Source of the DNA: a virus
Length of the DNA stretch: 64,000 nt
Reading direction: 5' to 3' (one strand)
Virus record (IMG/VR): IMGVR_UViG_3300040770_000057
Coordinates: 1-64,000 of that record
Position 1 is the first letter of the stretch, and each line of letters starts with the position of its first letter. Position numbers and translations under genes: made by a program. The notes beneath the pieces were generated by a model. It was given only the letters and a program-made list of their open reading frames with translations, was not told the DNA's origin and did no database searches. Positions 16,662 to 64,000 of the stretch are shown in pieces.

Positions 16662-17092
16662 TACAGTTTCATCCTATTTAGTTTTCGTACAAGCACAGTC
16701 CTGAAGCTCACCAACTGCTGAATCTGTTCAGCAACCGACAACTTCTCAGCATCCAAATAAATCCCAGTGGTAATCCCGTTCCTAAGATTCTCCAGCCGTG
16801 CATCAGTAGTCAGCAAGTCTGCTTCGTACTGGGCTATCTGGTTGCTCCTATTTATATCTAAAGATTGAACCAAGGTTGTGGAATCTAGCCCCAGAAAGTT
16901 CTGTAGCATCGCCTCTGCTTCCACTCGGCACAAAGCTTTCAGTTCTTCTTCCCCTTGGGTTGGGTCAAAACGAATCTCGCCAGTGAGCACATTGCCATTG
17001 GCTAGAAAGATTTTCCACCTATAGAACTCACCATCTCGCTCGTAAGTCTCTCGTACAGCAACATGGTCAGCTTGAAGTTTGGCTTCGTCCAT
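16661..17092 (-). CDS. hypothetical protein, first gene of the minus-strand block
   Basis: 143-aa ORF, 1-nt start/stop overlap (TAATG) with the next gene, weak SD. Confidence 0.55.
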   Translation of the reverse strand: MDEAKLQADHVAVRETYERDGEFYRWKIFLANGNVLTGEIRFDPTQGEEELKALCRVEAEAMLQNFLGLDSTTLVQSLDINRSNQIAQYEADLLTTDARLENLRNGITTGIYLDAEKLSVAEQIQQLVSFRTVLVRKLNRMKL

Positions 17093-17122
17093 AGTCTTTT
17101 ATTTGGTTCGTTAAAGGTAGCA

Positions 17123-17151
17123 ACTATACTTTAGTCTATCTTTAGTCACAA
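17123..17151 (-). promoter_or_regulatory. candidate sigma70-type late promoter
   Basis: On the minus strand: TTGTGA, 17 nt spacer, TATAGT, about 30 nt upstream of ATG 17092. Confidence 0.25.
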
Positions 17152-17311
17152 AAATGTTTCGTGCCATGGTAACATTCCACCTGCCTTGACATGGTGGATC
17201 CGCTCAGCAAGGGGATAGCGGTAGTAACACTTGCAGTTAGAGATGCCCCGCCTCCTGATAAATAAAGGGGCGTTGATCTAATAGGATGGCAACCTTAATA
17301 GCTTTATGAGA

Positions 17312-17347
17312 ATGGGGAGAGTTGTAGTGACTCTCTCCATTTTTTTA
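17312..17347 (+). terminator. intrinsic-terminator-like hairpin with no upstream plus-strand gene
   Basis: GGAGAG/CTCTCC stem (17316-17321 / 17333-17338) extended by AT pairs, then TTTTTTT. Confidence 0.45.
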
Positions 17348-17404
17348 ATCCTTCCATATATTTATATCTAGTTAAAGATATATCTAGAAACTTTTAGAAG
17401 GATG

Positions 17405-17435
17405 TTCTGCAATTTTTTGCAGTGCAGAATTTTTA
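17405..17435 (+). terminator. second terminator-like element with two alternative hairpins
   Basis: TTCTGCA/TGCAGAA (7 bp), or inner CTGCAA-TTTT-TTGCAG, followed by TTTTTA. Confidence 0.35.
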
Positions 17436-17524
17436 TTATGTAGGTAGGGTTGTAGTACTTTGGTGCTACACCGTACACCAAATAATTACCACCCCCCCGT
17501 AGTGCTTACACACTACACATACAC

Positions 17525-17557
17525 AGGGCGTACCGCCCTTCTGGACAATCTTGTCCA
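17525..17557 (+). promoter_or_regulatory. twin-hairpin motif copy 1 (candidate vRNAP early promoter)
   Basis: AGGGCG-TAC-CGCCCT, TC, TGGACA-ATCT-TGTCCA. Lies 47 nt (loop centre) before the SD-led ATG at 17579. Shares CTTCTGGACA...GTCCAT with copy 2. Confidence 0.5.
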
Positions 17558-17578
17558 TCTACTATCAGGAGTTAACTC

Positions 17579-17902
17579 ATGGCAACATCACGTATCACGT
17601 TCGGCGCAGTCCTCGGCACCATCGGTGACGCAGCAGGTACTGTCAGTACCGTCCTCAACACTGTCACAACCAGTGTCTCAATGCTCGGCAAGTTCGTTGA
17701 CGATGCTAAAGAACAGCAACGCATCCGCTCCATTGTCAACATGGACTCCTTCGGAGAAGTCCTCGCAGAGGAATCAGCTATGGCTGAAGCTACCCGCAAA
17801 TCAGACATTCTTGCATTCTGCAAGAAGTCTCCTGAACATCAGGAACTCTTCAACGTCGGCTACAACCGCGTTAAAGCACTCTTGGCTGTCCCAACCAAGT
17901 AA
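17579..17902 (+). CDS. early protein, unknown function
   Basis: 107 aa. CAGGAG SD. Followed by a terminator. Confidence 0.7.
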   Translation: MATSRITFGAVLGTIGDAAGTVSTVLNTVTTSVSMLGKFVDDAKEQQRIRSIVNMDSFGEVLAEESAMAEATRKSDILAFCKKSPEHQELFNVGYNRVKALLAVPTK

Positions 17903-17904
17903 CC

Positions 17905-17923
17905 AAAGGGCTTCGGCCCTTTT
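17905..17923 (+). terminator. intrinsic terminator (TTCG tetraloop)
   Basis: AAAGGGC-TTCG-GCCCTTT plus T, directly after the stop at 17902. Confidence 0.6.
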
Positions 17924-17928
17924 CAATT

Positions 17929-18028
17929 AGATAGATAGTCTCTCACTATCTATCTTCTCATCTCGATAGTCCTATCCTCTATAGGAAATAACTATCGGAT
18001 CAGGTTAGCTGATAGTACTACGCTATCA
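17929..18028. repeat. cluster of three hairpins built on GATAG/CTATC
   Basis: AGATAGATAGT-CTCTC-ACTATCTATCT (11-bp perfect). CGATAGT...ACTATCG with nested CCTAT-CCTCT-ATAGG. TGATAG-TACTACG-CTATCA. Confidence 0.8.
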
Positions 18029-18093
18029 ATTCCTAACCCCAATTTCCATCTCTCCCAAACCTAAACACAACCTAAATACTATGGACTAAACTT

Positions 18094-18297
18094 ATGTCTA
18101 TCCCAATGCTTTTCCGTGTTGCTATCGTTAGCAACTACGACGAAATGCTCTTCACTGAAAGTTGGGCTTCTGAACCAATGTCTGAAGAACAAGCTGAACT
18201 TGTTGCCAAAGACCTCAATTCCAAAGCTCCACCTAACGGTCCCAACTACCACTTGGTAGTTCCCTCAACCTACACACTCTACTCATTCACACCATGA
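18094..18297 (+). CDS. hypothetical early protein
   Basis: 67-aa ORF, ATGA overlap with the next ORF, no clear SD. Confidence 0.5.
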   Translation: MSIPMLFRVAIVSNYDEMLFTESWASEPMSEEQAELVAKDLNSKAPPNGPNYHLVVPSTYTLYSFTP

Positions 18298-18482
18298 AAT
18301 ACCTTTGCTGTTTCACCATGTTCCTGTGTCTCATAACCTTTGGCATCTCTTTAGTTGCCCTTGGTTTGTTCACAACCAACCAAATACCTTGGTTTGTTGC
18401 TTTGGTGTCCTCAATCGTTGTTGGCTTCTACAGCTCTGTATGGGCCGAATACTACGAGCATCACCCTACGTGTAATCAATAA
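18294..18482 (+). CDS. small two-TM membrane protein
   Basis: 62 aa with two hydrophobic helices (FTMFLCLITFGISLVALGLF / WFVALVSSIVVGFYSSVW). Confidence 0.55.
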   Translation: MKYLCCFTMFLCLITFGISLVALGLFTTNQIPWFVALVSSIVVGFYSSVWAEYYEHHPTCNQ

Positions 18483-18483
18483 G

Positions 18484-18516
18484 AGGCGGCTACGCCGCTT
18501 CTGGACATTTCGTCCA
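18484..18516 (+). promoter_or_regulatory. twin-hairpin motif copy 2 (candidate vRNAP early promoter; may also terminate the upstream unit)
   Basis: (AG)GCGGC-TAC-GCCGC(TT), C, TGGAC-ATTTC-GTCCA. Lies 57 nt before the SD-led ATG at 18549. Confidence 0.5.
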
Positions 18517-18548
18517 TTCCTCAATCAATCTTCTCAGGAGTATTTACC

Positions 18549-18977
18549 ATGATCAATTCCAATTCTTCCGCTGTTTCCACCGACTTCGCTGCTGCTTTCG
18601 GCAAGAAGTCCACTGCTGCAACGCCTGCTGCTGATCGTCCGAAGAGCCAGTTCTGGATGAACATCGGCTACACCGTTCAGGTGGACGTTCAAGAAAACGG
18701 TGTCACCACTGGCACCGAATCCAAGTTCGTGTCCTTGCCAGTTGGCATCCCACTGGACGGTATGCAGCCTCTGCCTGTGAACAGCAAGAACGAAGAGTTC
18801 GCTGCATTCCAGACTGCACGCAACGACCTGTTGAACCAGTTGAGCCAAGTTGCTACTTCGCTCAAGCCCGGTGAAGAACGCATCGTTAACTTGGAAATCC
18901 AAGTTCGCCGTGTCTCTGCTGAAGCTGCACCGATCCCTTCGGCAACCAACCCGTTCAGCCGCAAGCTGGACCTGTAA
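18549..18977 (+). CDS. early protein, unknown function
   Basis: 142 aa. CAGGAG SD. Has its own upstream motif and downstream terminator. Confidence 0.7.
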   Translation: MINSNSSAVSTDFAAAFGKKSTAATPAADRPKSQFWMNIGYTVQVDVQENGVTTGTESKFVSLPVGIPLDGMQPLPVNSKNEEFAAFQTARNDLLNQLSQVATSLKPGEERIVNLEIQVRRVSAEAAPIPSATNPFSRKLDL

Positions 18978-18986
18978 TTAAACTGT

Positions 18987-19012
18987 CCCATACCGCAAGG
19001 TATGGGCTTTTT
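18987..19012 (+). terminator. intrinsic terminator
   Basis: CCCATACC-GCAA-GGTATGGG followed by CTTTTT. Confidence 0.7.
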
Positions 19013-19152
19013 AATTGTCTTCAGATAGCTCAAACTTAGTTCTACTAAGCAGGAGCTTTCTAAAGCACAGATCCAACTTAAATCAACTTTTTGTCTGATT
19101 CAACCTAAAGGATAAATCATGAGGCGCTGACCTGAACCTTCCCAAAAAACTA

Positions 19153-19314
19153 ATGCTTTATCAGTACATCTTTAGATGTACGGTGACTGTCGCCACTACG
19201 TTCTACGAAGCAGAGAGCAGATCACCAAAACCAAATAGCCTTCGGGTAGTCAGTTTGAACGACTTAAACATCACGTACCTCGATGAACGTCATCATCGGG
19301 GCTTGGCAACGTAG
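19153..19314 (+). CDS. possible 53-aa ORF in an otherwise non-coding interval
   Basis: Manual translation MLYQYIFRCTVTVATTFYEAESRSPKPNSLRVVSLNDLNITYLDERHHRGLAT. No SD. Ends 8 nt before a terminator. Confidence 0.25.
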   Translation: MLYQYIFRCTVTVATTFYEAESRSPKPNSLRVVSLNDLNITYLDERHHRGLAT

Positions 19315-19322
19315 CCTCTAAA

Positions 19323-19351
19323 GCCACATCCCACAAAGGGTGTGGCTTTTT
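19323..19351 (+). terminator. intrinsic terminator
   Basis: GCCACA...TGTGGC stem (inner CCC/GGG) followed by TTTTT. Confidence 0.6.
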
Positions 19352-19371
19352 ATATTCAACAAGGATAGACC

Positions 19372-19683
19372 ATGCTGCAAGTAGTCAATCGACATACGCA
19401 TAAGCCTACGCTTAACGACATATATATAGGGAGAGGTAGTGCTCTAGGTAATCCTTACCCAATCACTGCTACCAGCGACAGAACACAAGTCATTGAGCTA
19501 TACCGTGTATGGCTTGATGAAAAGATTCAAGCTGATGATGAGGCTGTCTGCGATGCACTGAACCATATTGCTTATCTGTATGCCACTGGGCATTCAGTCA
19601 ATCTGGTGTGCTTTTGCTGTCCTAGAGCCTGTCATGGAGATGTGATCATTGCCGTCATCCTAGCGAAGCTAAAGATGTTTTGA
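19372..19683 (+). CDS. DUF4326-like protein
   Basis: IYIGRGSALGNPYPI and CFCCPRACHGDVI match my memory of the DUF4326 pattern. AAGGA SD. Confidence 0.65.
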   Translation: MLQVVNRHTHKPTLNDIYIGRGSALGNPYPITATSDRTQVIELYRVWLDEKIQADDEAVCDALNHIAYLYATGHSVNLVCFCCPRACHGDVIIAVILAKLKMF

Positions 19684-21261: not shown

Positions 21262-21440
21262 GCCTGCTCACAAAACCCTTCACTCCACTGCCACAGCCCC
21301 AAACCCGCTTGCTCATCAAGAAGCGGATCTTGGCAGTGCATCTGATGCTTCGCAGGAGCCATCCAAATGGCTATTCAGCCAAGCATTACCTAAACAGGCT
21401 ACGCCTGTTGTGTAGGTTGTACGCTGAAGCGACCACATGA
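21258..21440 (+). CDS. possible small basic protein (frame uncertain)
   Basis: ATGA overlaps at both ends favour this frame. The alternative frame 21224-21415 is also open. Confidence 0.35.
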   Translation: MSLLTKPFTPLPQPQTRLLIKKRILAVHLMLRRSHPNGYSAKHYLNRLRLLCRLYAEATT

Positions 21441-22422: not shown

Positions 22423-22613
22423 TGTTGCAACCTAAATTGGATTTACGGATTGCAACTGTTGAAATCACTCTTGAATTTACCGACAAGCCCAATCTTGTAT
22501 TTACCAAGCAATTGCTTGTAGCAGATGTGGAATGGGCTGTTGATCAATTCAAAGATGTAAACAAGGCTACCAACGCAACTTACAAAACACTCTCTGTTAA
22601 GGAAATGTCATGA
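22422..22613 (+). CDS. hypothetical protein
   Basis: Start at MLQPKLDL (TAATG overlap, GTGGAG SD) rather than the track start 22353. Confidence 0.55.
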   Translation: MLQPKLDLRIATVEITLEFTDKPNLVFTKQLLVADVEWAVDQFKDVNKATNATYKTLSVKEMS

Positions 22614-22993
22614 CCAAAATATTTGTATTCGGCAGCAATCTTGCTGGTGTTCATGGTGCTGGTGCTGCTGCATTAGCACACAGAACACTTAATGCTCAAT
22701 GGGGTGTTGGCATTGGCCGTACTGGTCAATGCTATGCCATACCAACCAAAAACCAACGCATCCGTACTCTTCCCTTGGATCGAATCAAGGAACACATCAA
22801 TGACTTCATTGAATACGCTGAACACAACCCTCTGTTGACCTTTCAGGTCACACGAATTGGTTGTGGCTTAGCTGGCTTTGATGACAAAGACATTGCACCC
22901 TTGTTCAAAGGTGCTCCAACCAACTGCGAGTTTGATCTTCAATGGCAACAATACTTGGGTCTGGAAAACAGATCCTATTGGGGCACTTACTAA
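22610..22993 (+). CDS. A1S_2505-like phage non-structural protein
   Basis: IFVFGSNLAGVHGAGAA, CYAIPTK and RIGCGLAGF match a recurrent phage family as I remember it. Confidence 0.6.
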   Translation: MTKIFVFGSNLAGVHGAGAAALAHRTLNAQWGVGIGRTGQCYAIPTKNQRIRTLPLDRIKEHINDFIEYAEHNPLLTFQVTRIGCGLAGFDDKDIAPLFKGAPTNCEFDLQWQQYLGLENRSYWGTY

Positions 22994-23013: not shown

Positions 23014-23829
23014 ATGGAACTCATTAACCGACAAATCGAGCTTGAAGAGCTTTACGCCAAAAATCAATTGATCCCTCGGATCAAACAAGAGTTCGTCAAC
23101 GCTGTAGATCAAGGTGTGGACTTCTCCGCAAAGTTTGCTGAGATTAACATTGATCAAGCCTTTGGCTACGCAGTGTTAGTCCAGATGGCTCTTCACAAAC
23201 GTACAGATCTACCAATCTTAGTTGGTACTGTCCGTCACTTCTATCAGACTGCACAGGAAGTTGCCAACAATCTGTTGGTACTTGCTATGCATGATCTGAT
23301 TGATTGGGAACCAGAAACACAGAAGTTCGTAGTCAAGTTCACCATCTCTGATGATGTGCAACAAGAGATTGATCGCTTCCAATTTCCATTGCCTATGTTA
23401 GTAGTTCCAAAGGAACTCAAGGGCAACAAAGACTCGGGTTACCTAACCTTTAAGTCATCTGTGATCCTGAAAGACAATCACACAGAAGATGACATATGCC
23501 TTGACCACATCAACCGCATGAACAAAGTCAAACTCTGTTTGGACTTAGACACTGCAATGATGGTCAAGAACCAATGGCGATACTTGGACAGAGTTAAACC
23601 GGGTGAAACCAAGGTTGACTATGACAAACGCTGCAAAGCATTTGCTAAGTATGACAAAGACTCAAAGAGAGTTATGGAACTCATTGACACAGAAGGTGAA
23701 GGATTCTACTTAACCCACAAATATGATAAACGTGGCCGTACCTACTGTGTCGGCCATCATGTATCATACCAAGGCACACCTTGGAATAAAGCCTGTGTTC
23801 ACTTCCAAACAAAAGAAATCATCCCATGA
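23014..23829 (+). CDS. RNA polymerase II small subunit (N4 gp15-like, RNAP1)
   Basis: 271 aa from MELINRQ (AAGGAA SD). Size and position upstream of the catalytic RNAP2 match N4 gp15. No catalytic motifs are expected in this subunit. Confidence 0.7.
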   Translation: MELINRQIELEELYAKNQLIPRIKQEFVNAVDQGVDFSAKFAEINIDQAFGYAVLVQMALHKRTDLPILVGTVRHFYQTAQEVANNLLVLAMHDLIDWEPETQKFVVKFTISDDVQQEIDRFQFPLPMLVVPKELKGNKDSGYLTFKSSVILKDNHTEDDICLDHINRMNKVKLCLDLDTAMMVKNQWRYLDRVKPGETKVDYDKRCKAFAKYDKDSKRVMELIDTEGEGFYLTHKYDKRGRTYCVGHHVSYQGTPWNKACVHFQTKEIIP

Positions 23830-25369: not shown

Positions 25370-26587
25370 ATGCAAACTTTCACTCCCCGCGAATACTTGA
25401 TGATCGACATTGCCAACTCATACGGGTTGGACAAACTCGATTGGAATCTACGCATCGACTGGTTCAAACAAAATGAGGACAAACTCATGAGCCTGCTCGA
25501 CACAGCAAAGACTCCAGCCCTGTATTACGCAGGGGTGAAGGCTTGGCAAAACGTGCTGGATGGCAAAGCAACTGGATACCCTATCTCTCTGGATGGGACT
25601 TCCAGTGGCTTGCAAATCCTCGCTGCTCTCACCTGTGACCGTTCGGCTGCATTGCTCTGCAATGTGCTGGACTCTGGCTCTCGTGAGAACGCCTACACAG
25701 GCATCTACCAAGCCATGCTGGACAAGCTTGGTGAAACTGGCCACATCAATCCTGATGAGGTCAAGCAGGCCATCATGACTGCACTGTACGGCTCAGAAGC
25801 TGAACCAGTGAAGATCTTCGGCACTGGTGCTCTGTTGAATACTTTTTACACAACGATGGAAGAGCTTGCTCCTGCCGTCTGGAACCTCAACAAAGCATTC
25901 CTTGATATGTGGAATCCAACTGCCCTGTCCTACGACTGGGTGATGCCTGACAACTTCAATGTCCACATCAAAGTGATCCGCACAACAGAAGAGACAGTGA
26001 ACTTCCTGAACACACCTTACAAGGTGATCCAGAAAGTCAATGCTCCAAAAAAGATTGGCCGATCCATCGGCGCAAATCTGACCCACTCAGTTGACGGAAT
26101 GGTAGTACGTGAAATGGCACGCCGTTGCATGTATGACCCACAAGTGGTATCTGATGCCAAAAGCATATTGATGAACCATGGAAAGACTGTAGGACAAGAT
26201 CCTGCTGGTCACCTCCCAAGTCGCCAAACTGATGAAGTCTTGGCCCTCTGGCAGCACTACAAAGAGTCAGGCTATCTGTCTGCTCGGATCCTTGACAGTA
26301 TCAACATCATGAATGTTCGGTACTTGGACAAAGACGTAGTGCTTGCCTTGATTGACAGCTTGCCTGTCAAGCCATTCACTCTCGTCAGCGTCCATGACTG
26401 CTGGAGATGCCTGCCTGCCTATGGCAATGATCTCCGTTACCAATACAACCTGCAACTCCAACTGATTGCCAAAAGCAACCTCTTGGGCTGCTTAGTAGGA
26501 CAGATTGTAGGCCATCCCGTGCAATCTCCAAAGTCTGATCCAAGCATGGCAGACGAAATCCTGCAAGCTAATTACGCACTTAGCTGA
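25370..26587 (+). CDS. RNA polymerase II large (catalytic) subunit (N4 gp16-like, RNAP2)
   Basis: 405 aa from MQTFTPRE. T7-like motifs DGTSSGLQILAAL (A), KQAIMTALYGS (B) and VSVHDCW (C). Confidence 0.85.
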   Translation: MQTFTPREYLMIDIANSYGLDKLDWNLRIDWFKQNEDKLMSLLDTAKTPALYYAGVKAWQNVLDGKATGYPISLDGTSSGLQILAALTCDRSAALLCNVLDSGSRENAYTGIYQAMLDKLGETGHINPDEVKQAIMTALYGSEAEPVKIFGTGALLNTFYTTMEELAPAVWNLNKAFLDMWNPTALSYDWVMPDNFNVHIKVIRTTEETVNFLNTPYKVIQKVNAPKKIGRSIGANLTHSVDGMVVREMARRCMYDPQVVSDAKSILMNHGKTVGQDPAGHLPSRQTDEVLALWQHYKESGYLSARILDSINIMNVRYLDKDVVLALIDSLPVKPFTLVSVHDCWRCLPAYGNDLRYQYNLQLQLIAKSNLLGCLVGQIVGHPVQSPKSDPSMADEILQANYALS

Positions 26588-31056: not shown

Positions 31057-31134
31057 TGGTTGCAGGGGCAGGATTTGAACCTGCGATCTACGGCTTATGA
31101 GGCTGTCGAGTTAACCAGACTTCTCTACCCTGCT
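31057..31134 (-). tRNA. tRNA-Met (anticodon CAT; could be Ile2 if lysidine-modified), CCA encoded
   Basis: Manual cloverleaf: acceptor 6 bp plus an A1-A72 mismatch, U8, GG in the D-loop, anticodon loop CTCATAA, T-arm GCAGG-TTCAAAT-CCTGC, ACCA 3' end. One A-C mismatch in the anticodon stem. Confidence 0.7.
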
Positions 31135-31139
31135 AAAAC

Positions 31140-31223
31140 TGGTGGATGCTCTTGGGATCGAACCAAGCTGCCGTGAAGCCAGAGGGTTACAGCCTCCTGC
31201 CCCGCCATTGGAGCATAGCATCC
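31140..31223 (-). tRNA. tRNA-Tyr (anticodon GTA), type II with long variable arm, CCA encoded
   Basis: Acceptor GGATGCT/AGCATCC, D-stem GCTC/GGGC, anticodon stem GGAGG/CCTCT with loop CTGTAAC, 13-nt variable arm, T-arm CTTGG-TTCGATC-CCAAG. Confidence 0.8.
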
Positions 31224-41000: not shown

Positions 41001-41471
41001 ATGAACACTCACCCTCAACCCCAACCTGATTCACTAGGCCATTCAACTCAATGGATCCAAGCTTGCTTGCCTGATCCAAAAGTGAAAGACTTCCATACTC
41101 AGTTCGGCGTCTTCTGTGAAGAAGTAACCGAAGTGATCAAAGAGGTCAGCCCACGGGATGACGTTACCCATGACCTTCTCAGGGCTGCACAAGAAGCCAT
41201 GAGCAAACTAGGCGATCATCTCAAAGCCAGCAACTGCGTCATCTACATTGACACCCCAAACCGCAAAAACTTCCTCAAGGAAATGTGCGATGTGGCTGTC
41301 ACATTGACTACAACAGCACACACCCAGAAGATGAACATCGAAGGTGGTATGCACGCTGTCAACAATGCAAACTTCTCCAAGTTTGATCACGGCAAACCTT
41401 TGTTTGACGCCAATGGTAAAGTGGTCAAAGGACCGAATTACAAAAAAGCCGATCTCAGCCTGTTTGTCTGA
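41001..41471 (+). CDS. MazG-like nucleotide pyrophosphohydrolase (tentative)
   Basis: FCEEVTEV (EExxE) and KEMCDV (ExxD), spaced as in the MazG fold. Confidence 0.4.
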   Translation: MNTHPQPQPDSLGHSTQWIQACLPDPKVKDFHTQFGVFCEEVTEVIKEVSPRDDVTHDLLRAAQEAMSKLGDHLKASNCVIYIDTPNRKNFLKEMCDVAVTLTTTAHTQKMNIEGGMHAVNNANFSKFDHGKPLFDANGKVVKGPNYKKADLSLFV

Positions 41472-55677: not shown

Positions 55678-58600
55678 TCAGTTGATCAGATTCCACCATG
55701 GGTTTAACGCTGGTGCAGTCAGACCCTGACCAATACCCATTGAGTTGCCAATGCGACCTTCAGCCAAGATGGTCAAGAAGTTGTCTTCCACTGGTGTACC
55801 GATGTTGCCAAACACTGGCACCGTTGGAATCATGCCAGCCAGCAGCACTTGCAATGGGTTGTTCCGAATCATCGAAGCAGCCACCTTTACAGAACGAATC
55901 TTGAAATTGTAGAACCACAGCAAGCCATTGCTTTCCAGTGAGCCACGGAACCTACCGGGCAGACGGTCATAGTTCACATACTCTTCAGAGATTTGAGCCA
56001 AAGCTTCAGCTTCAGTCTTGCCCTTGGTCTTCATCAAGTGGTCAAACAGAATCGCTTTACCCAAGAAGTCACCGTACTCAGTTGCTTTCTGAACAGCCTG
56101 GAATAGTGCTGTGTCCTTGGTCACCAAAGCATACTTGCCAGCAGTCTGAAGACTCTCGGGCAACTTGGAAACAGCGTTCTCCATGTAGGCGTGAAGCTTG
56201 CCCTCAGACAACAGGATCTCTTCACGAGAGATACCAGCATCAGAAATGGCACTGAACTCACCAGCATTGATCAAAGGCCAGATGCTCAGACGGCGGTAGC
56301 TGTCCTCAATCGACTTGATCTCAACACGCAGCTTGCCAGCTTTCAATGGATCATTGGCAGCAGCAAGAAGCTCAGCTTCAGCCTCAACGTGACGAATACG
56401 ATTCTTCACATACGAGTCAATCTCAGCAGTCTTACGTGGCATGTCACGATACAGAGTCACTGGCGACACACCACGACTCAGCAACTGAACCATGTTGGAA
56501 ACCAAGTTGCCAGCAGGCACGATCACAGACTTCATCACGATCAAAACTTTGGCATCCTTGATGTAGTTCTGGAGAACCTTTTCAGCGTTCACAAGGTACT
56601 TGTACGCATCAACACCCATGGTGCTGATAGCCAGCCGCTGGACGACCTTTGCAGTCTTTGGATCCCAGTGGGTTACCCCACTCCACAAATCACGCACAGA
56701 GGCTGCACGGTAGCCCACAGCATCGTTGATTATGTCTTTGCGAACCATGAACTCATTGCCGAAAACTTGTTCCACGTAGTCACGAACTTCTTTGCTCATG
56801 AGCTTCAGAGCATCAGCAGTTACCGGATCCAGTTTGTTGCCAAACAGATTTACGTACTCACTGCGATTGTTCCCACCTGTCTTCATGTCTTCGTCGTACA
56901 TAGCTTTCAGGTTGTCGATCAGCAGGTAATTCATTTCCTGACCTTTGACCTCTTCAACCTGACGACCACGCCACACACCAATCATCTTGGCCAGATGGGT
57001 ATCTTTCTCCAGCTTGTCAGCTTGAGCAGGATCAATGGAGCGTTCAAACGCAACCACAGAACCAGTGTCATCAAACACAGGCAGCAGTGGCGCAACAGAG
57101 TCTTGCTCACGAGCACGACGACGAAGCAGCTTGGCCAAGTACATTGGATCAACCGTATTGCCAGCAGTCATGCCATTGACCGTCAAGCCAGTCGTCAGAT
57201 CAACACCACCAGCAGTCTGGTTCACGTTCTGAAGCAGACCCTGAGTGAAGGCACCTTTACCACCGACAGGTGAGAAGTAGTAGCCCTTGCTTGCAAAGCC
57301 ACTTTCCAGATTGGAACCAACGTAATCACCAGTGCGAATGTAGCCACGCAAACGAAGCTCAGATGCTTGGCTGTCATCAGCCACGATCAAAGACACACCA
57401 GCTTTTTGTTCGCTTGGGATGTGGCCTTTGTAGGCATTTGCTTGAGCCATGGGATTGAGAGATGCTTTGCGATTCTCTTCCTCACGCTGACCAGTCAGGT
57501 AGGCCAGAGCAAAGTCAACACCCTCTGCTTCAGTCAAAACCAAAGCAGACAGTTCAACCATGTCAGCAGGAGAAATTTTCTCCAGAGCGTACAGAGACAC
57601 CAGTTGGTCAATCTCGTTGGACAGATCAACCGAAGTAGCCATACCACCTTCACCCCACAACTTGCCAATTGCGAATGAGTTGCGAAGCAGGTTCATACCA
57701 GCTTTGCCAGTCATCATGTACTCAGCCAGTTGCTTGGACTTTGCGATTTGCTTCTGACCATTCAGGGTAGATGCATCAGTCAGCACCTTCTCAAGACGCT
57801 TGATCTCAGCAGTACGAGCAGCAGTGTCAGTGATCAAACCAACAGTGGCAGCACGAGTACGGCCAGTGATCAACGAAGCAAGATCAGTCTTGCCCATTCC
57901 ACGGAACATAGCTGACCACTCACTATCCAGCAGTGGACGAGTGAACTTGCCTGCAATCACCGTGGGCACGTTCTCACGATATGCCTGACGGTCTTGCTGA
58001 ACCACAGAACGAACCTTCTTGATCATGTCCACGATCACAGCATTGGTCGAAGTACGGCCAATCAGATCAGAAAATAGTTCACGAATCGGACGAACCAAGT
58101 TGGTACGGTTCACGCCACTCATAACACCACGAGAAACAGCATCAGCTTTCTCTTCACTGACCAGCAGACTTGTCAGCTTCACAGCAGCATTCACAGCCTG
58201 AGCAGATTTACTGTTCGGGTTGTTCTTTGCAAGACGCTCTGTTTTGCTCAGTGCATAGTCAGACAGTGCATTCATGCCTTCAACAATCTTCGCATTCAGT
58301 TGGTTCACCCGACCAGTTGCGTTGTTGATTGTTGTTGCAACCAAGTTCTCATTACGCTCAGCCAGATCAATGATGTTCTCTGTCAGAGCATTGATCGCAG
58401 CTTGCACAGAAGGAGCACCTTTTGTGTTTGACAACGTAGCTGACAGATTCTCCATTGCATTCATGCCAAGGTTCTCAAGCACATTGTCAGCACTGTCGTT
58501 TTTGTTCAGACCAATTTTGGTTGGAGCCATCTTCGACAGCACAGCTCGAAGTTCATCATTGACGATGGCCATGCCAAGGAAAGCAGACAGTAAAGATGAA

Positions 58601-61600
58601 CGGCCCAGTGCATCAGTCTTGACCATGCTCTGACCCATCAGCCATTCATACTTCTTGCGAGCAGCGTCATACTCATTTGGATCCTGTGAAGTTGGATCAG
58701 CCATGAAGTCTTGAATGGTCAACTCTTTGGTCACTTGCGTGTACAAAGTTTGTGCCCTAGCCATTGATGCAGGATCAATCTTTGCTTGTGTAGCCAAAGC
58801 AGCAACGACACTTTGCAGAGTCGTTGACTCTTGCAGCGTCATACCAAACCCATTGGCCTGTGCATCCAAAGCCAAATCAGTTGCCCGTGCAATGGATGCA
58901 GCAATCACTTGATCAGCAGCCACAGTGGACGGTGCAGTGTTTAAGTAGGTCACAACCATGTTGTCAAACGCATCTTGAATACGCACCAAACGAGCATTGT
59001 CATTGGGGCTGGATTGCTTCAAGATGATCTGTTCATTTGGCACGGCAGTACCAGCAGTGCTCAGGTTTTTACCTTGCACTGCCATGATCACAGAGCTGTT
59101 GAACAGCAAATTGCTGAACACATCCTGACCAGCAGCAGGCACAGCTTTACGCCCAAACAGCAGCTTCTTGATCAGTGCAATTGTTTGCTCTGCAAGACGA
59201 GCCAAAGGATTGGCTTTCTCAGTTTTCAACACAGTAGCCAGATTCTGGTTTGCCAGTGCCCATGCCATGAATTCATTCAGTGCAGCAGCCTTGGCCACAG
59301 TAGGTGCCATCGTGTCATTGCCACTGAAACCGAGGATTGCCTGACGAGCATTGCGATAGGCAGCAATCAATTCAGGGCTACCAACAGCAGTCAGACGTTC
59401 CTCAGAATTCAGGAACTGAGCCATCAGCTTTTCCATGTTGGACACAGCCAAGCTCACCACAGCAGCTTCATTCCCTTGGATCTTGCCGTTGTAATGATCC
59501 ACCAAAGTTTCAATGGTAGAAGCATGTACCAATTCATGAACCAAAGTCTCAGCAGAGGGCTTGGCCAGATAGACAGTCTTGTCAATCGTAGAGGTCCAGC
59601 CACTGGTAACACCAGAGCGAACGTCAGCAGCATCTTCAGGGCTAGTAGCAAAAGCAGCCAGTTGATCAGGTGTACCGTAGATCACCTTGTAGCCTTTTGG
59701 AGCCAAGGAAGAAAGCACCTGTTCCAGCACCACAGCCATGTTGTCAGGAATACTGAATTCCTTCTGCAAGGTCTTCAAAGTGGACAGCACCAAAGTGCGA
59801 GTTCCATTTTTGGCTTTCTTGCCAGCAGTGCTCAGTTCAGTCGAAATGTCATCTGAACCAAAAGACTTCATGGCAGCAAGCTTTGCGTCGTAAGCCTCAT
59901 TCAACTCAGCAACAATCTCATCCAGATTAGTGGAAGTCAATTGCTTCTTGCCAGAAGTTTTGAACGGTGCAGCAGCAGAAGCCATCTGATCAACACTGAT
60001 TGAATAATCAGCAAGTACTTGCTTACGCACATCAGCATTGACAGCAGCGTTTTTAAGCGATGCACCCATAGACTTGACCTTGGCCAATGCGTCAGCAGCA
60101 GTCAATTCCTTGTCTGCAAAGATACGTTTGAAGTCAGTCAACATTGCATCAGTGATTGTCAGATCACCATTCAGCAACATGCCATCAAACGATTGAGACA
60201 CAGCCTTGAAAGGATTCCCTTTCCAGCTTTCAGTCACAGCTTCGTTTGATTTCTCACTGTCTTCAGTGATGGTGGACAGCTTCATGTTCATACCGTCGAA
60301 CACCTTCAGGGTTCCTTCAGGAGCACCCATCATGGTGGCAAGACGTTGCATCATCACACCGTCACCCATACCAATCACAAGGAATGGAATACCTTTGACA
60401 CCAGCATCACGAGGACCATACACGGAAGCAGGCATCTTGAAGCGATCTCCCAATGAGGCAGCAAGATTTGATTTGTTATCGTCAGCAGCATCACGGCCAG
60501 CAATGAAGTAACTTTGCTCTTCGGTCTGAACCAAAGGATGCAGGGCTTTCAATTGGCCCATTGCAGTCTTCAGATCTGCTTTCGACAAGAACTCACCCTT
60601 TGGCTTGGTAGCTTTGATCTTCTCCAAAATGCCCATGTAGGCATTGGCCATGAAGATCGACTGCACCTGAGTAGCTTGCTGAATAGTGTCTACACCAGCA
60701 GTCAGATCAGATCCCAAAGTATCGGTGATACCTTGACGAAGAGGGGTCACAAACAGCTTCAGCAAATTCTCAGAGAGATTGGAAATTTCATCAGCTTGCA
60801 GCGTGAAGTCTTTCGGGTTGCTGGCACTACGGTTATCAGCCGTAGGAGTCTTCTTGACATACATCTCGCCTTTGAATTCTTTAACCACTTCTTGAGTCAG
60901 GCTGTTCATGTCGTTGACGAAGTTGTCAAACTTCTTCTCACCACCAGCACCAAACATTGCTTCACCCCATGACATTTTTGTACCTGCCATTTTCTTGGCA
61001 GCGTCAGTCATGCGAGCATAGACAGCATCAAGCAAAGCTTGTGTGATTTTGGAAGAGACACCCTTTGCACCAGCACCATAGATCGTTACCGTCAGCGGAT
61101 TCTTCACCAGCTTACGATCAATATCCAAACCACCTTCACCATCATCTTTGATGAGATCAGGCAAGAACGTATTCATCAAAGACACAATGCTATTCATTTT
61201 GGATTCAATGACTGGCTGTTGCTTCAGAGATTGACGCATCGTTGCCAATGCTTTCTTGAAGCCATTGGCAGCAGTTTCGTACAAGTCAACATTACCACCT
61301 TGCTCTTTCATGCCACGGAATTCATTCATGGTCATATTGCCCAGACCAAGAAACAAACCACCCTTGCGAATGTTGTTGACCCACTCAGTAGTGAACTTGC
61401 CAGTAGTCATCAGCATCATTGCGTTGATCGGGCCATTGGTCACACCGTCAGCCTCAACGTAGAGCGAAGTAGTGAAAGCTTTTTTGGCTTCTACATCCAT
61501 TGCTTTGTAACGTGCATATTCCATCAGAGCATGGACAGCAACAGGAGTGAAGTCTTTACCCAGACGTTCCTTGATTGAAGCCATTTCATCTTGCGTCAGG

Positions 61601-64000
61601 GCACGAGATTCAGTAGTTGGATCGTAGTCATTGAGCCAAGCAGCCAAAGACTCGACAGCACCAGAGTACTCATTTTCCAGCTTCTTGAAAATCAACTCGT
61701 TGGATGCTTCAACAGAAATGGTATGCACCTTCACACCCAGAGCTTGAGCCAAGGCAAGACCAAATGCTTTGTGTTCCTTGGATCCAACCTTCGACACATC
61801 AATTGTTGAACGGGTAGGCAGCAGCAGTTCACGGACAAACTTGGATGCTTGTGGGCCAAAGCGACCAAGCTGTTGCAGACGGTTCACCTTGCTCATGTTG
61901 TACGCATAACGTACAGCAAAATCTTGAGCAGGCACACCAGCTTTCTCAGCTTGGTTCTCCAGATCACCAACCAGACCTTCAATCGACTTGAACGACGAAG
62001 CCAGATTCAAGTTACGACCTTCAAGGGTCTTCAGATGATTCACATTGGTGACAGCCACATCAGCTTGTTCACCAAACATTTCCATCACAGCATCCAGACC
62101 CATTGCTTTGTACATCTCAAACAAAGGCAGATTCAAGTAGAACGGAGTGTTGCCTTCAGCTTCAACTGCTTTCAGTGCAGCAGGGCTGTTCTCAACAAAG
62201 CTATTCCGCATCTGTGCAGTAGCTACAGGAGGACGAGCACTGCCCATAAAGCGAACTTCAGTAGGCTCGATAGAGACAGCTTGCTCAATAGCAGTTGGGT
62301 AAGTCTGGATCAGCTTGTCAGAAGCGTATTCAACCAGTTCATAGCGATCTACTGTCTTTGGTTTACCAGTCAGATTGACAGGAATATCAATGACAGTTTC
62401 TTTAAGCATACCGCCTGCAACCATTGCAGCAAACACTTCAGCAGCAACCCCTAATGGGATGCCTTCAGCGTAAGAATCAGACTCAGTTGACTTGGATTGC
62501 ACACCCCAATACTTTGGCAACATGGCAGCAATCGCACGAATTGCTTCCACATGACCCATGGTGTTCTTCAGCAAAGGAAGGTACGGACCAACTTGCTCTT
62601 CAGTCAAACTGAGAATTGCAGCAGCATCACGTTCATCAACAATGCTGGAACGATCCATTGCAGTGATACGCCATTGCAGACCAGCCAACACAGCACCATC
62701 CAAAAGAGTCTCATCGTACTGGTACGTGCCATCAACCTCACGGGTGATGTTCATTGGCTTGCCATTGATCCAAGTTGTTGGCTTTGACTTGTCTGGGTCA
62801 GCATAAACTTGAACTACTTTTTTGTCTTGAATGAACTCAGCCAAACTGTCTTTCATAGACAGTTTGATTTTGTTGCCCAAACGAAGGTAGTTCTGGTAAG
62901 CACCAGCCACATCAGAAGCCAACGTAGAGCTTTGATCCACACCAGTGAATGCCTTCAATGCTTCTGTGCTGGCCAATGCGTCATACACATCACGAAGAGG
63001 TTTTTCCAAACCGACCAGACGAGAGACAGCGTTCTTTGTGTACTGAAATGCAGTACCAAAACGGGACGAAGACACCAGACCCTCAAACACATTGCCAGTG
63101 TCAGACACGATTGGTTCTGCAACTGGCTCAGCTTTCGCAACCTTTGGTTGTGCAGCTTCACGCTTTGCACGGTCAGTCTCAAGACGTTCAGCCAAGATCT
63201 CTTTGATCTCAGCAATCGTTTCTTCATTCTTGGCTGATTTGTCTGGGTTGTTTTCCAGATTTTCCAGCACACTCGACAACTCAGAAAACTTCATGGTAGC
63301 CAGACCAGCAGCAGCACCGTTGTCAGGAACAGGTGCAATCTCTGGTTCTGGTTCAGCGACAGCTTTAACGACAGGCTCAGGCTTGACAGGAACAGCCACA
63401 ACAGGCTCTGCAACCACAGGAGTAGCTTTGGGTGTGACAACTGGAGCAACAGCAGGAGCGACGTTCTGAGCAGCCTGACCGGGCATTGACCGAACACCTG
63501 AAGCAAATTCATTTGCCACAGTGTCAGCTACGCCATCTAATTCTGGAGCCAAGGAAGCCAAGCCCATCTTTTGAACGCCCAGTTCTGGGAATGCATCAGC
63601 CAAGCCATTGACAATCCCACCCAGACGATCAGCCTCAAGAGCAACGCTCTGAGCAAAGCGGATAGAACCAGCAGACGCAGGAGTTACACCCAGAGCTTTG
63701 CTCGACAAAGTGAAATTACGTTTCTGGCCAAGAGACTGGTACTTTTGAGCACCATCAGTGCCAGCAATACCACTTGCAAAAGCAGCATTGATGGCACCAA
63801 GTTTATTCTGCATGTGCTGAGCAAACAGCATGAAGTCTTCCAACTGTGCTTTGCCAGTAGCGTAGTCACCAGCGTCATAGGCAGCACGGATACGGGAACC
63901 ATGATCCAAGGCTGAAAGACCTTTGGCACCAGTCTCAGTCTGAATCTCAGCACTGACACGAGACAGTTCAGTCAAACCATTGGCAGCAGCTTTTGCATCA
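55678..64000 (-). CDS. virion-encapsidated RNA polymerase (N4 gp50-like), C-terminal ~2774 codons; 5' end outside window
   Basis: The frame is open from the window edge to the stop at 55678. T7-like motifs EADGVTNG (~61440), KNPLTVTIYGAG (~61070) and KVFDGMNM (~60290). Giant size is the N4-like hallmark. Confidence 0.85.
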   Translation of the reverse strand, partial: DAKAAANGLTELSRVSAEIQTETGAKGLSALDHGSRIRAAYDAGDYATGKAQLEDFMLFAQHMQNKLGAINAAFASGIAGTDGAQKYQSLGQKRNFTLSSKALGVTPASAGSIRFAQSVALEADRLGGIVNGLADAFPELGVQKMGLASLAPELDGVADTVANEFASGVRSMPGQAAQNVAPAVAPVVTPKATPVVAEPVVAVPVKPEPVVKAVAEPEPEIAPVPDNGAAAGLATMKFSELSSVLENLENNPDKSAKNEETIAEIKEILAERLETDRAKREAAQPKVAKAEPVAEPIVSDTGNVFEGLVSSSRFGTAFQYTKNAVSRLVGLEKPLRDVYDALASTEALKAFTGVDQSSTLASDVAGAYQNYLRLGNKIKLSMKDSLAEFIQDKKVVQVYADPDKSKPTTWINGKPMNITREVDGTYQYDETLLDGAVLAGLQWRITAMDRSSIVDERDAAAILSLTEEQVGPYLPLLKNTMGHVEAIRAIAAMLPKYWGVQSKSTESDSYAEGIPLGVAAEVFAAMVAGGMLKETVIDIPVNLTGKPKTVDRYELVEYASDKLIQTYPTAIEQAVSIEPTEVRFMGSARPPVATAQMRNSFVENSPAALKAVEAEGNTPFYLNLPLFEMYKAMGLDAVMEMFGEQADVAVTNVNHLKTLEGRNLNLASSFKSIEGLVGDLENQAEKAGVPAQDFAVRYAYNMSKVNRLQQLGRFGPQASKFVRELLLPTRSTIDVSKVGSKEHKAFGLALAQALGVKVHTISVEASNELIFKKLENEYSGAVESLAAWLNDYDPTTESRALTQDEMASIKERLGKDFTPVAVHALMEYARYKAMDVEAKKAFTTSLYVEADGVTNGPINAMMLMTTGKFTTEWVNNIRKGGLFLGLGNMTMNEFRGMKEQGGNVDLYETAANGFKKALATMRQSLKQQPVIESKMNSIVSLMNTFLPDLIKDDGEGGLDIDRKLVKNPLTVTIYGAGAKGVSSKITQALLDAVYARMTDAAKKMAGTKMSWGEAMFGAGGEKKFDNFVNDMNSLTQEVVKEFKGEMYVKKTPTADNRSASNPKDFTLQADEISNLSENLLKLFVTPLRQGITDTLGSDLTAGVDTIQQATQVQSIFMANAYMGILEKIKATKPKGEFLSKADLKTAMGQLKALHPLVQTEEQSYFIAGRDAADDNKSNLAASLGDRFKMPASVYGPRDAGVKGIPFLVIGMGDGVMMQRLATMMGAPEGTLKVFDGMNMKLSTITEDSEKSNEAVTESWKGNPFKAVSQSFDGMLLNGDLTITDAMLTDFKRIFADKELTAADALAKVKSMGASLKNAAVNADVRKQVLADYSISVDQMASAAAPFKTSGKKQLTSTNLDEIVAELNEAYDAKLAAMKSFGSDDISTELSTAGKKAKNGTRTLVLSTLKTLQKEFSIPDNMAVVLEQVLSSLAPKGYKVIYGTPDQLAAFATSPEDAADVRSGVTSGWTSTIDKTVYLAKPSAETLVHELVHASTIETLVDHYNGKIQGNEAAVVSLAVSNMEKLMAQFLNSEERLTAVGSPELIAAYRNARQAILGFSGNDTMAPTVAKAAALNEFMAWALANQNLATVLKTEKANPLARLAEQTIALIKKLLFGRKAVPAAGQDVFSNLLFNSSVIMAVQGKNLSTAGTAVPNEQIILKQSSPNDNARLVRIQDAFDNMVVTYLNTAPSTVAADQVIAASIARATDLALDAQANGFGMTLQESTTLQSVVAALATQAKIDPASMARAQTLYTQVTKELTIQDFMADPTSQDPNEYDAARKKYEWLMGQSMVKTDALGRSSLLSAFLGMAIVNDELRAVLSKMAPTKIGLNKNDSADNVLENLGMNAMENLSATLSNTKGAPSVQAAINALTENIIDLAERNENLVATTINNATGRVNQLNAKIVEGMNALSDYALSKTERLAKNNPNSKSAQAVNAAVKLTSLLVSEEKADAVSRGVMSGVNRTNLVRPIRELFSDLIGRTSTNAVIVDMIKKVRSVVQQDRQAYRENVPTVIAGKFTRPLLDSEWSAMFRGMGKTDLASLITGRTRAATVGLITDTAARTAEIKRLEKVLTDASTLNGQKQIAKSKQLAEYMMTGKAGMNLLRNSFAIGKLWGEGGMATSVDLSNEIDQLVSLYALEKISPADMVELSALVLTEAEGVDFALAYLTGQREEENRKASLNPMAQANAYKGHIPSEQKAGVSLIVADDSQASELRLRGYIRTGDYVGSNLESGFASKGYYFSPVGGKGAFTQGLLQNVNQTAGGVDLTTGLTVNGMTAGNTVDPMYLAKLLRRRAREQDSVAPLLPVFDDTGSVVAFERSIDPAQADKLEKDTHLAKMIGVWRGRQVEEVKGQEMNYLLIDNLKAMYDEDMKTGGNNRSEYVNLFGNKLDPVTADALKLMSKEVRDYVEQVFGNEFMVRKDIINDAVGYRAASVRDLWSGVTHWDPKTAKVVQRLAISTMGVDAYKYLVNAEKVLQNYIKDAKVLIVMKSVIVPAGNLVSNMVQLLSRGVSPVTLYRDMPRKTAEIDSYVKNRIRHVEAEAELLAAANDPLKAGKLRVEIKSIEDSYRRLSIWPLINAGEFSAISDAGISREEILLSEGKLHAYMENAVSKLPESLQTAGKYALVTKDTALFQAVQKATEYGDFLGKAILFDHLMKTKGKTEAEALAQISEEYVNYDRLPGRFRGSLESNGLLWFYNFKIRSVKVAASMIRNNPLQVLLAGMIPTVPVFGNIGTPVEDNFLTILAEGRIGNSMGIGQGLTAPALNPWWNLIN

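Follow-up and report, generated by a model that had tools for sequence, protein, structure and literature searches.

The stretch of viral DNA analysed here, hereafter the window, comprises 64,000 nucleotides (nt; positions 1 to 64,000 of the IMG/VR virus record IMGVR_UViG_3300040770_000057). Upstream of two early genes it carries two copies of a motif in which a GC-rich hairpin with the loop TAC is followed at once by a second hairpin. The question raised by this locus was whether these elements are promoters for a virion RNA polymerase (vRNAP) of the type known from phage N4, as had been predicted from the sequence, or signals of another kind. The analysis indicated that the two elements are very probably the early promoters P1 (of the gp1 homologue) and P2 (of the gp2 homologue) of an N4-like phage, read by its own virion-packaged, T7-like RNA polymerase (RNAP). 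Elements of this kind were to be expected at these positions; they belong to a known promoter type and carry a minor specificity variant.

The original prediction gave the two copies as strings at 17525-17557 and 18484-18516, and these strings and coordinates were exact when the sequence was re-read. Hairpin I denotes the GC-rich hairpin and hairpin II the one that follows it:
17525..17539, plus strand: P1 hairpin I, AGGGCG-TAC-CGCCCT, with a stem of 6 base pairs (bp) and a 3-nt loop; its template (minus) strand form is 5'-AGGGCG GTA CGCCCT-3', with the loop centre (position -11) at 17532
17542..17557, plus strand: P1 hairpin II, (T)GGACA-ATCT-TGTCC(A), after the spacer TC and from the predicted +1
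17543, plus strand: predicted transcription start site of the gp1 transcript, G then G, 11 nt 3' of the loop centre, placed by N4 geometry
18486..18498, plus strand: P2 hairpin I, GCGGC-TAC-GCCGC, 5-bp stem and 3-nt loop, loop centre 18492; on the template strand GCGGC GTA GCCGC, which includes the GCGNAGC mini-hairpin heptamer
18502..18516, plus strand: P2 hairpin II, (T)GGAC-ATTTC-GTCC(A), after the spacer TTC and from the predicted +1
18503, plus strand: predicted transcription start site of the gp2 transcript, G then G, placed by the same geometry as for P1

The distances of 47 and 57 nt to the ATG codons at 17579 and 18549 hold when they are counted from the loop centres. For the stem of the second copy, the 5-bp GCGGC/GCCGC part was upheld and the proposed extension (AG...TT) was not; the extension holds a G:T pair, which would be an A:C mismatch on the template, so that the functional P2 stem is 5 bp.

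The twin-hairpin observation is exact and lies beyond chance. The 10-mer shared by both copies, CTTCTGGACA, has two exact occurrences in the 64 kb, both at the twin-hairpin sites, and TGGAC-N3-6-GTCCA was found in the window only at P1 and P2. Of all the perfect hairpins in the window that combine a 3-nt loop with 5 or more stem pairs, P1 and P2 have the most GC-rich stems (five G:C pairs each). A composite rule was derived from N4 and its relatives without use of the window; it demands a T-N(N)-C loop on a stem with 5 or more perfect pairs, GG 11 nt away from the centre of the loop, and a second stem, likewise perfect and 4 bp or longer, that begins at this GG. This rule matched the window twice, at P1 and P2, compared with a mean of 0.01 matches in 200 dinucleotide shuffles, none of which reached two. 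Single-stranded DNA folding gave twin hairpins on both strands of both copies, with template-strand z-scores of -5.3 (P1) and -3.5 (P2); 0-1 of 200 shuffles folded equally well.

Inspection of the first 8 kb of N4 revealed comparable hairpins upstream of gp1 (GTTGC-TTC-GCAAC ttat GGACAtgtTGTCC, the last part being GGACA-tgt-TGTCC), gp2 (AAGAAGC-TCC-GCTTCTT tt GGATG-aagtaatg-CATCC) and gp15 (AAGCTGC-TCC-GCAGCTT tt GGT(T)..ACC). These hairpins match the mapped N4 vRNAP promoters P1-P3, published as a GC-rich heptamer centred at -11 between inverted repeats, with a template C at +1 (PMC4496689). By alignment, the window motifs occupy the N4 P1 and P2 positions. In both copies the hairpin falls within the 5-7 bp stem and 3-nt loop of this promoter type (6 bp in P1, 5 bp in P2); the coding-strand TAC is GTA on the template and so retains the loop pattern 5'-G(-10) N A(-12)-3'; and GG stands at +11/+12 from the loop centre, with a coding-strand T at -1 (a template purine). 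N4 geometry places +1 at G17543 and G18503, in each case the first G of the GG, as in all three N4 promoters. The start had been predicted to fall inside the conserved CTTCTGG, and its register is right: the predicted +1 comes just after CTTCT, at the N4 distance of 11 nt from the loop centres.

The surrounding sequence also agrees with N4; the window is an N4-like (Schitoviridae) phage genome in permuted form. Its major capsid protein shares 76% identity with the capsid proteins of Inbricusvirus and Achromobacter schitoviruses. Searches by tblastn with N4 early proteins recovered homologues of gp1, gp2, gp12, gp14, gp15 and gp16 in the same order as in N4; the late genes run leftward, up to 17092. 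The genome also encodes a cognate giant vRNAP, as expected for N4-type hairpin promoters: the product of the ORF (open reading frame) at 55678-63975 on the minus strand aligned to residues 761-3499 of N4 vRNAP (gp50) over approximately 2750 residues (2127 bits) and is the enzyme predicted to read P1 and P2. The relevant features are:
55678..63975, minus strand: vRNAP gene, of which the C-terminal 2765 codons lie inside the window and the N-terminus beyond the window end
17455..17465 (about 17459): inferred physical left genome end, homologous to N4 base 1, placed by homology alignment only
17579..17902, plus strand: gp1 homologue, the first early gene (tblastn 41% identity, E 9e-22; phrog_5020)
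17906..17921, plus strand: terminator-like hairpin after gp1, AAGGGC-TTCG-GCCCTT then TTCAATT, seen by reading the sequence
18549..18977, plus strand: gp2 homologue (tblastn 42% identity to N4 gp2, E 2e-35; phrog_4099)
18987..19012, plus strand: intrinsic terminator after gp2, CCCATACC-GCAA-GGTATGGG then CTTTTT
17582-17887: tblastn match of N4 gp1
18507-18968: tblastn match of N4 gp2
19381-19647: tblastn match of N4 gp12
22610-22993: tblastn match of N4 gp14
23014-23823: tblastn match of N4 gp15
25370-26587: tblastn match of N4 gp16

Both elements are in the early region at the left end, where each lies upstream of its gene (gp1 or gp2) in the same orientation. The left end was placed by an alignment of the window, N4 and seven other phages with records that start at the terminus, including St11Ph5, Axy13, Axy11, phiAxp-3, Zuri and RiverRider. 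The non-coding stretch before gp1 aligned with the N4 left end, which puts the P1 hairpin about 73 nt inside the inferred end; window P1 itself aligned with N4 P1 and with the P1 sites of nine other phages. An equivalent of the gp1 terminator was also present 3' of gp1 in N4 and in the related locus L120; the hairpin at 17906-17921 was not called by the rule-based terminator scan. Sigma-70-like promoters were depleted between 17000 and 23100 (2 compared with 8.1 expected), and none was found before gp1 or gp2 in the scan of the early region. With regard to function, N4 gp1 is reported to be required for middle promoter use (PMC4496689), and gp2 is the single-stranded DNA-binding cofactor of the phage RNA polymerase II (RNAP II), frequently misannotated as 'RNAP1 subunit A'; the Pokken gp2 annotation refers to N4 gene 2.

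The promoter architecture was then compared across 99 related loci, comprising the left ends of 18 isolated schitoviruses, one IMG/VR contig and 80 metagenomic loci with a gp2 homologue. A scan with a simple rule yielded 104 non-identical sites, the window's own included. The coding-strand loops were TTC (40 sites), TCC (39), TGC (7), TAC (6) and T-NN-C (12). Two of the six TAC sites were the window's own and the others were in L157, L168 and L190 (twice); L168 is a G7C-like contig, and its relatives carry TCC loops. Stems were 5-7 bp. The closing pair was C:G in 100/104 sites and G:C in two (window P1 and one other), with a coding-strand T at -1 in 90/104 sites and a coding-strand C at -8 in 71/104. 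When hairpins with any loop were considered upstream of gp2, nearly all had GG at 11 nt from the centre (11.5 nt for 4-nt loops), and among the 135 hairpins of the related loci with GG at 11 nt from the loop centre, 102 had T..C loops. Most isolated phages in the set showed this architecture before gp1 or gp2, as did about 55 metagenomic loci, in which it matched the P2 position upstream of gp2. The family rule that emerges from these sequences would be a GC-rich hairpin of 5-7 bp with a T-N-C or T-NN-C loop and a C:G closing pair, GG exactly 11 nt past the loop centre and often a stem-loop starting from the GG. On the template strand the loop reads G-N-A or G-NN-A closed by C:G, which is the GCGNAGC / GCGNNAGC mini-hairpin.

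Four-nt loops (TTAC, TTCC, TGTC, TGAC and TAAC, with template GNNA), compared with the typical 3 nt, were present in several schitovirus lineages: at positions 78 and 518 of L122 (Ea9-2), at 5249 and 5915 of L120, and in L207, L187 and L231.

Alignment of related phages to look for stem co-variation had been proposed as a check. Compensatory changes were found at all five stem pairs (129 cells; covariation 0.915 compared with 0.144 for shuffled sites), but perfect stems were a condition for including a site, so that the informative part of this result is the diversity of pair types alone. A blastn search of 16800-19200 against 50,697 phage records gave no match, so there was no close relative for covariation at the nucleotide level; the closest relative by gp2 was 49-57% identical. 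The exact pattern CTTCTGGACAN{3,6}GTCCAT occurred in at least 119 IMG/VR stretches, and since none of the matches listed had an upstream hairpin, these were set aside as chance occurrences.

A covariance model (R1) built from 73 sites, with no window sequence among them, was run without filters on the plus and minus strands of the entire window. The top three hits were all on the plus strand and all in the early region:
18482-18507, plus strand: rank 1, 24.1 bits, E 2e-4
17522-17547, plus strand: rank 2, 14.8 bits, E 0.08
21391-21416, plus strand: rank 3, 14.1 bits, E 0.13
41321-41343, minus strand: next best, 11.2 bits, E 0.87

Positional homology to N4 P1 and P2, the family-wide architecture and a model trained on other phages only strongly supported the core of the original prediction, namely that the motifs are N4-type vRNAP promoters. 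Three differences from N4 had been stated with it. The first of these, the base at the loop centre, was correct; the one on the second hairpin was wrong, and the number of copies was no meaningful difference.

At the loop centre, the template reads 5'-GTA-3', so that G(-10) and A(-12) are canonical and -11 is T. According to a review from 2015, the N4 enzyme recognises -11A/G, -10G, -8G and +1C (PMC4496689), and a cryo-EM study from 2026 showed a base-specific contact of R119 with -11G, on which W129 stacks (PMC13492108). At the N4 contact positions the window vRNAP retains K114, W129 and D901, has V in place of R119 and K in place of R904. Further N4 contacts were also changed: K849-K850 (backbone, -12/-13) to P-K and K267-K268 (beta-intercalating hairpin) to P-K; R904, which is K here, is the reader of -8G in N4. 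Residue 119 was R (K in Axy10/11) in every genome that could be paired with TCC or TTC loops, a set that included N4, G7C-like and KP8-like phages, inbricus, Pokken, RiverRider and several uncultured contigs. In Klebsiella phage Pylas, which has TTC loops, the element that contacts -11 was too divergent to align confidently and R119 is tentative. Residue 119 was not basic in the three lineages with other loops:
window: loop TAC, residue 119 V, residue 129 W
Zuri: loop TGC, residue 119 M, residue 129 T (W lost)
Ea9-2: loops TTAC and TTCC, residue 119 A, residue 129 Y

The combination of -11T with R119V suggests a shifted promoter specificity, and the distribution fits co-evolution of the loop type with polymerase residue 119. 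What truly sets this phage apart is -11T in the loop, with the flipped closing pair of P1, in combination with R119V; the original prediction mentioned neither the flipped closing pair and flipped -8 base of P1 nor the change in the polymerase. A broader proposal, which we regard as tentative and on balance doubtful, is that the Schitoviridae are split into promoter-specificity classes in which the loop base or bases co-evolve with the -11 recognition element, and that the stem-loop at +1 is an undescribed third promoter element of the whole family, serving RNA release or protection. The classes may comprise R/K119 with a -11 purine, V with -11T (the window), M with loss of W129 and -11C (Zuri), and A with Y129 and 4-nt loops (Ea9-2).

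The second hairpin had been described as a departure from N4. It is not one, because N4 P1 carries GGACA-tgt-TGTCC, near-identical in sequence, in the same place; N4 P2 and P3 also have a stem-loop from +1. In 46/104 sites (44%) the predicted +1 was exactly where a perfect stem began (4 bp or more, loop of 3-9 nt), whereas such a stem began at 5.5% of other GG positions of the same loci, and the signal was maximal at offset 0. The stems differed by lineage and stayed complementary (GGACA/TGTCC, GGGCA/TGCCC, GGATG/CATCC, GGGGA/TCCCC, GGAG/CTCC, GGCA/TGCC), which argues for selection on pairing rather than on a protein-binding sequence. Since this stem begins at +1, hairpin II is transcribed, and RNA folding retained a 5'-terminal stem-loop in the predicted early RNAs of both the window and N4. 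Hairpin II lies outside the polymerase-binding hairpin and most likely forms the 5'-terminal stem-loop of the early mRNA. An alternative is a DNA hairpin in the non-template strand that holds the bubble open. The twin hairpin is thus a conserved family feature and no novelty of this phage; no description of the +1 stem-loop was found in the literature, in a search that was incomplete for subscription journals and older N4 papers.

The third difference, that only two copies were visible, was not a meaningful one, since the sampled left ends of relatives had 0 to 5 promoters by the scan rule and the window has a weaker third site:
21392..21410, plus strand: possible weak third promoter hairpin, AACAGGC-TAC-GCCTGTT, 7-bp stem with a C:G closing pair

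This hairpin overlaps the 3' end of a 60-amino-acid ORF and lies 36 nt before an ATG at 21437. It has G then T at +11/+12 rather than GG, has no clear second hairpin and fails the composite rule; a third promoter here is possible. No promoter was present at the N4 P3 position, because the gap between gp14 and gp15 (about 22993 to about 23014) is only some 20 nt and leaves no room. A hairpin at 22843 (TGACCT-TTC-AGGTCA) was considered as P3 and rejected, being inside the coding sequence of the gp14 homologue and without GG at +11.

By homology to N4, the promoters would work as follows. After injection of the left genome end, negative supercoiling would extrude the GC-rich inverted repeat as hairpin I; with respect to the conditions for extrusion (gyrase supercoiling, host single-stranded DNA-binding protein (SSB) and a single-stranded template), the analysis covered the propensity for single-strand folding. 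The G-N-A triloop of the template strand, here 5'-GTA-3', would act both as the recognition element and as an allosteric key for the polymerase. Initiation with GG would follow at G17543 and G18503, 11 nt from the loop centres, and each transcript would contain one gene and be ended by a conventional terminator (17906-17921 and 18987-19012). N4 vRNAP makes RNA:DNA hybrids on single-stranded templates and needs SSB for displacement of the transcript (PMC4496689). Hairpin II may shield the early transcript from decay that depends on the 5' end, or free the nascent RNA from the single-stranded template, or both.

Several observations weigh against parts of this reading. Both copies have a pyrimidine, T, at -11, where N4 has A or G. 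The correlation with residue 119 comprises three independent lineages with non-purine or 4-nt loops, and many of the genomes with R are closely related. The P1 closing pair is G:C (-9G:-13C) as opposed to the C:G of nearly all sites, and the template base at -8 is C, not G; P2 (GCGGC-TAC-GCCGC) fits the strict N4 pattern of -9C:-13G with -8G. For the N4 promoters, extrusion requires the 3'G:C5' closing pair and recognition requires -8G (PMC4496689). P1, with only 14.8 bits and an E value of 0.08 under R1, may be a weak promoter; the flipped pair may mean that P1 is weaker or that this polymerase is more tolerant. Single non-Watson-Crick pairs in hairpin II were A:C in 12 cases and G:T in nine, which does not decide between RNA and template DNA; the A:C cases apparently came mostly from near-identical G7C-like GGACATGTCGTCC sites. 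Finally, no hairpin promoter was found for the ORFs at 18094-18482, for which no sigma-70-type promoter was detectable either, or for the genes past 19012, those of RNAP II included. Expression of the ORFs at 18094-18482 must come from P1 read-through or from a promoter of another class, and the early transcription map is therefore incomplete.

The deviations in P1 are the basis of one rival explanation, that P2 alone functions as a vRNAP promoter and that the hairpin at the P1 position has decayed or is very weak, with gp1 expressed poorly or by other means. The rare closing pair, the loss of the common -8 base, the R1 score of 14.8 bits against 24.1 bits for P2 and the N4 requirements for extrusion and recognition all agree with it. 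Nevertheless, we consider it unlikely. The hairpin stands where homology to N4 places P1, its stem is the strongest (6 bp, five of them G:C) and its fold z-score the best. It also retains a TAC loop, a GG start at the 11-nt distance with T at -1, and a hairpin II with a perfect 6-bp stem. Furthermore, no sigma-70-like plus-strand site upstream of gp1 offers an alternative, and with K in place of R904 the preference at -8 may differ in this phage.

Two other explanations assign a different function to one or other hairpin. The GC-rich hairpins could be intrinsic (rho-independent) terminators for upstream genes or for the opposite strand, as might be thought from the P2 hairpin, which starts 4 nt past the stop codon of the ORF at 18294-18482 and overlaps a minus-strand terminator-like site listed by the scan (18498-18486). 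Such a role is extremely improbable, since neither hairpin is followed by a T-run on the plus strand (TCTGG and TTCTGG; tails TCTGGACA and TTCTGGAC) or appeared in the plus-strand terminator scan, P1 lies so close to the inferred genome end that there is no upstream gene to end, and separate classical terminators with T-runs follow gp1 and gp2. Nor are the features conserved across the family (a T-N-C loop, C:G closure and GG at exactly 11 nt) those of a terminator. It is also very unlikely that TGGACA-N4-TGTCCA is a double-stranded operator for a dimeric DNA-binding regulator of early transcription rather than an RNA or single-stranded DNA hairpin. The perfect 6-bp palindrome of the first copy, its presence at both promoters and the recurrence of GGACA/TGTCC in N4, in G7C-like phages and in Klebsiella phage Kpn16-P2 would suit an operator, but across the family the half-sites listed above vary freely while remaining complementary, the loop ranges from 3 to 9 nt with the stem anchored at +1, and several lineages have stems that contain G:T pairs, such as GGGTA..TGCCC. 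Free change of the half-sites together with a variable loop points to a selected structure, not to a protein-binding sequence of fixed spacing.

Other features of the region were recorded. Two small ORFs (67 and 62 amino acids) lie at 18094-18482 between the gp1 terminator and P2, the first of which matches phrog_19873. Upstream of them, also between the gp1 terminator and ORF 18094, GATAG/CTATC occurs nine times in 110 nt (17930-18027; 0.13 expected), the densest cluster of the window, which holds the perfect inverted repeat GATAGATAGT-ctctc-ACTATCTATC (17930-17954). The same motif was found at the same place in N4 (L121 523-549, GATAGTTcaatAACTATC), St11Ph5, Axy13, Axy11, Ea9-2 and L120; the cluster might bind protein as an array, or act as a signal in middle transcription, replication or injection. 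After the gp2 terminator, about 360 nt (19012-19372) contain no convincing ORF, the sole candidate being a 53-amino-acid ATG ORF at 19153-19314. This stretch is flanked by two intrinsic terminators (18987-19012 and 19320-19355) and could be a non-coding early transcript; Rfam gave no match in the promoter and early region, 19012-19372 included.

Near the genome end, a run of 7-9 C (17493-17499) about 35-45 nt from the physical left end was kept in 11/11 aligned schitovirus left ends, and the TACAC-type repeats that flank it were likewise conserved; the C run may act as a signal in packaging, in injection or at the terminus. A terminator-like plus-strand element (17309-17346; GGAGAG-ttgtagtgac-CTCTCC then T7) lies in the non-coding DNA of the right end, just short of the inferred terminus, and points toward the genome end. 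Tandem genes for tRNA-Met (CAT) and tRNA-Tyr (GTA) are located on the minus strand at 31057-31223, inside the plus-strand middle gene block.

These results annotate the early transcription signals of an uncultured N4-like phage and place its genome start, with two predicted start sites and two single-gene early units for both cofactors of middle transcription. The N4 hairpin promoter has been studied almost only in N4, and the comparison separates what appears to be family-wide (G..A loop flanks, C:G closing pair, 11-nt ruler, GG start and +1 stem-loop) from what drifts, namely the -11 base, apparently along with polymerase residue 119. How a single-subunit polymerase reads a DNA hairpin is thereby open to direct mutational test. 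If the specificity classes are real, the window polymerase and its promoters would be a natural pair orthogonal to that of N4, and such comparisons may yield orthogonal single-stranded DNA promoter/polymerase pairs.

Compared with N4, the window is alike in the left-end location, with P1 before gp1 and P2 before gp2; in the GC-rich 5-7 bp stem and 3-nt loop, with the template loop 5'-G..A-3'; in the template C at the predicted +1 (so that the RNA would begin with GG) 11 nt from the loop centre and the coding T at -1; in the stem-loop from +1 (GGACA..TGTCC in N4 P1); in the predicted single-gene transcripts ended by terminators; and in the homologous polymerase with K114, W129 and D901 kept. 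It differs in having T at -11, where N4 has G or A; in P1, in the G:C rather than C:G closing pair and the template C rather than G at -8; in the lack of a promoter at the gp14/gp15 junction, the site of N4 P3; and in the polymerase, where R119 is V, R904 is K, and K849 and K267 are both P.

The late transcripts of T7 (phi10 leader, GGGAGACCACAACGGUUUCCC) have a 5'-terminal stem-loop, for which a stabilising role has been tested in that system. The T7 case is similar in its T7-family polymerase, its start on a G-run and its stable stem-loop from +1; it is different in that the T7 promoter is double-stranded, and in Schitoviridae the stem-loop can only be assigned such a role by inference.

The N4 promoter (GCGGAGC) was named in a review as a natural example of mini-hairpin DNA (PMC13037366). 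The P2 template GC-GTA-GC conforms to GCGNAGC with N = T, and relatives with 4-nt loops fit GNNA, whereas the P1 template CG-GTA-CG is outside the GCGNAGC / GCGNNAGC consensus. In Pseudomonas phage LUZ7, compared here by its published description, the early promoters were mapped by ONT-cappable-seq (PMC9163698). They are likewise Schitoviridae vRNAP hairpin promoters, whose stem has at least 4 bp and whose loop has 3 nt; G is preferred as the start, and the promoter count differs between genomes (nine early starts in LUZ7). In contrast to the GG at 11 nt in the window and N4, the LUZ7 start is 13-14 nt from the hairpin centre, and LUZ7 has Drc instead of a gp2 homologue.

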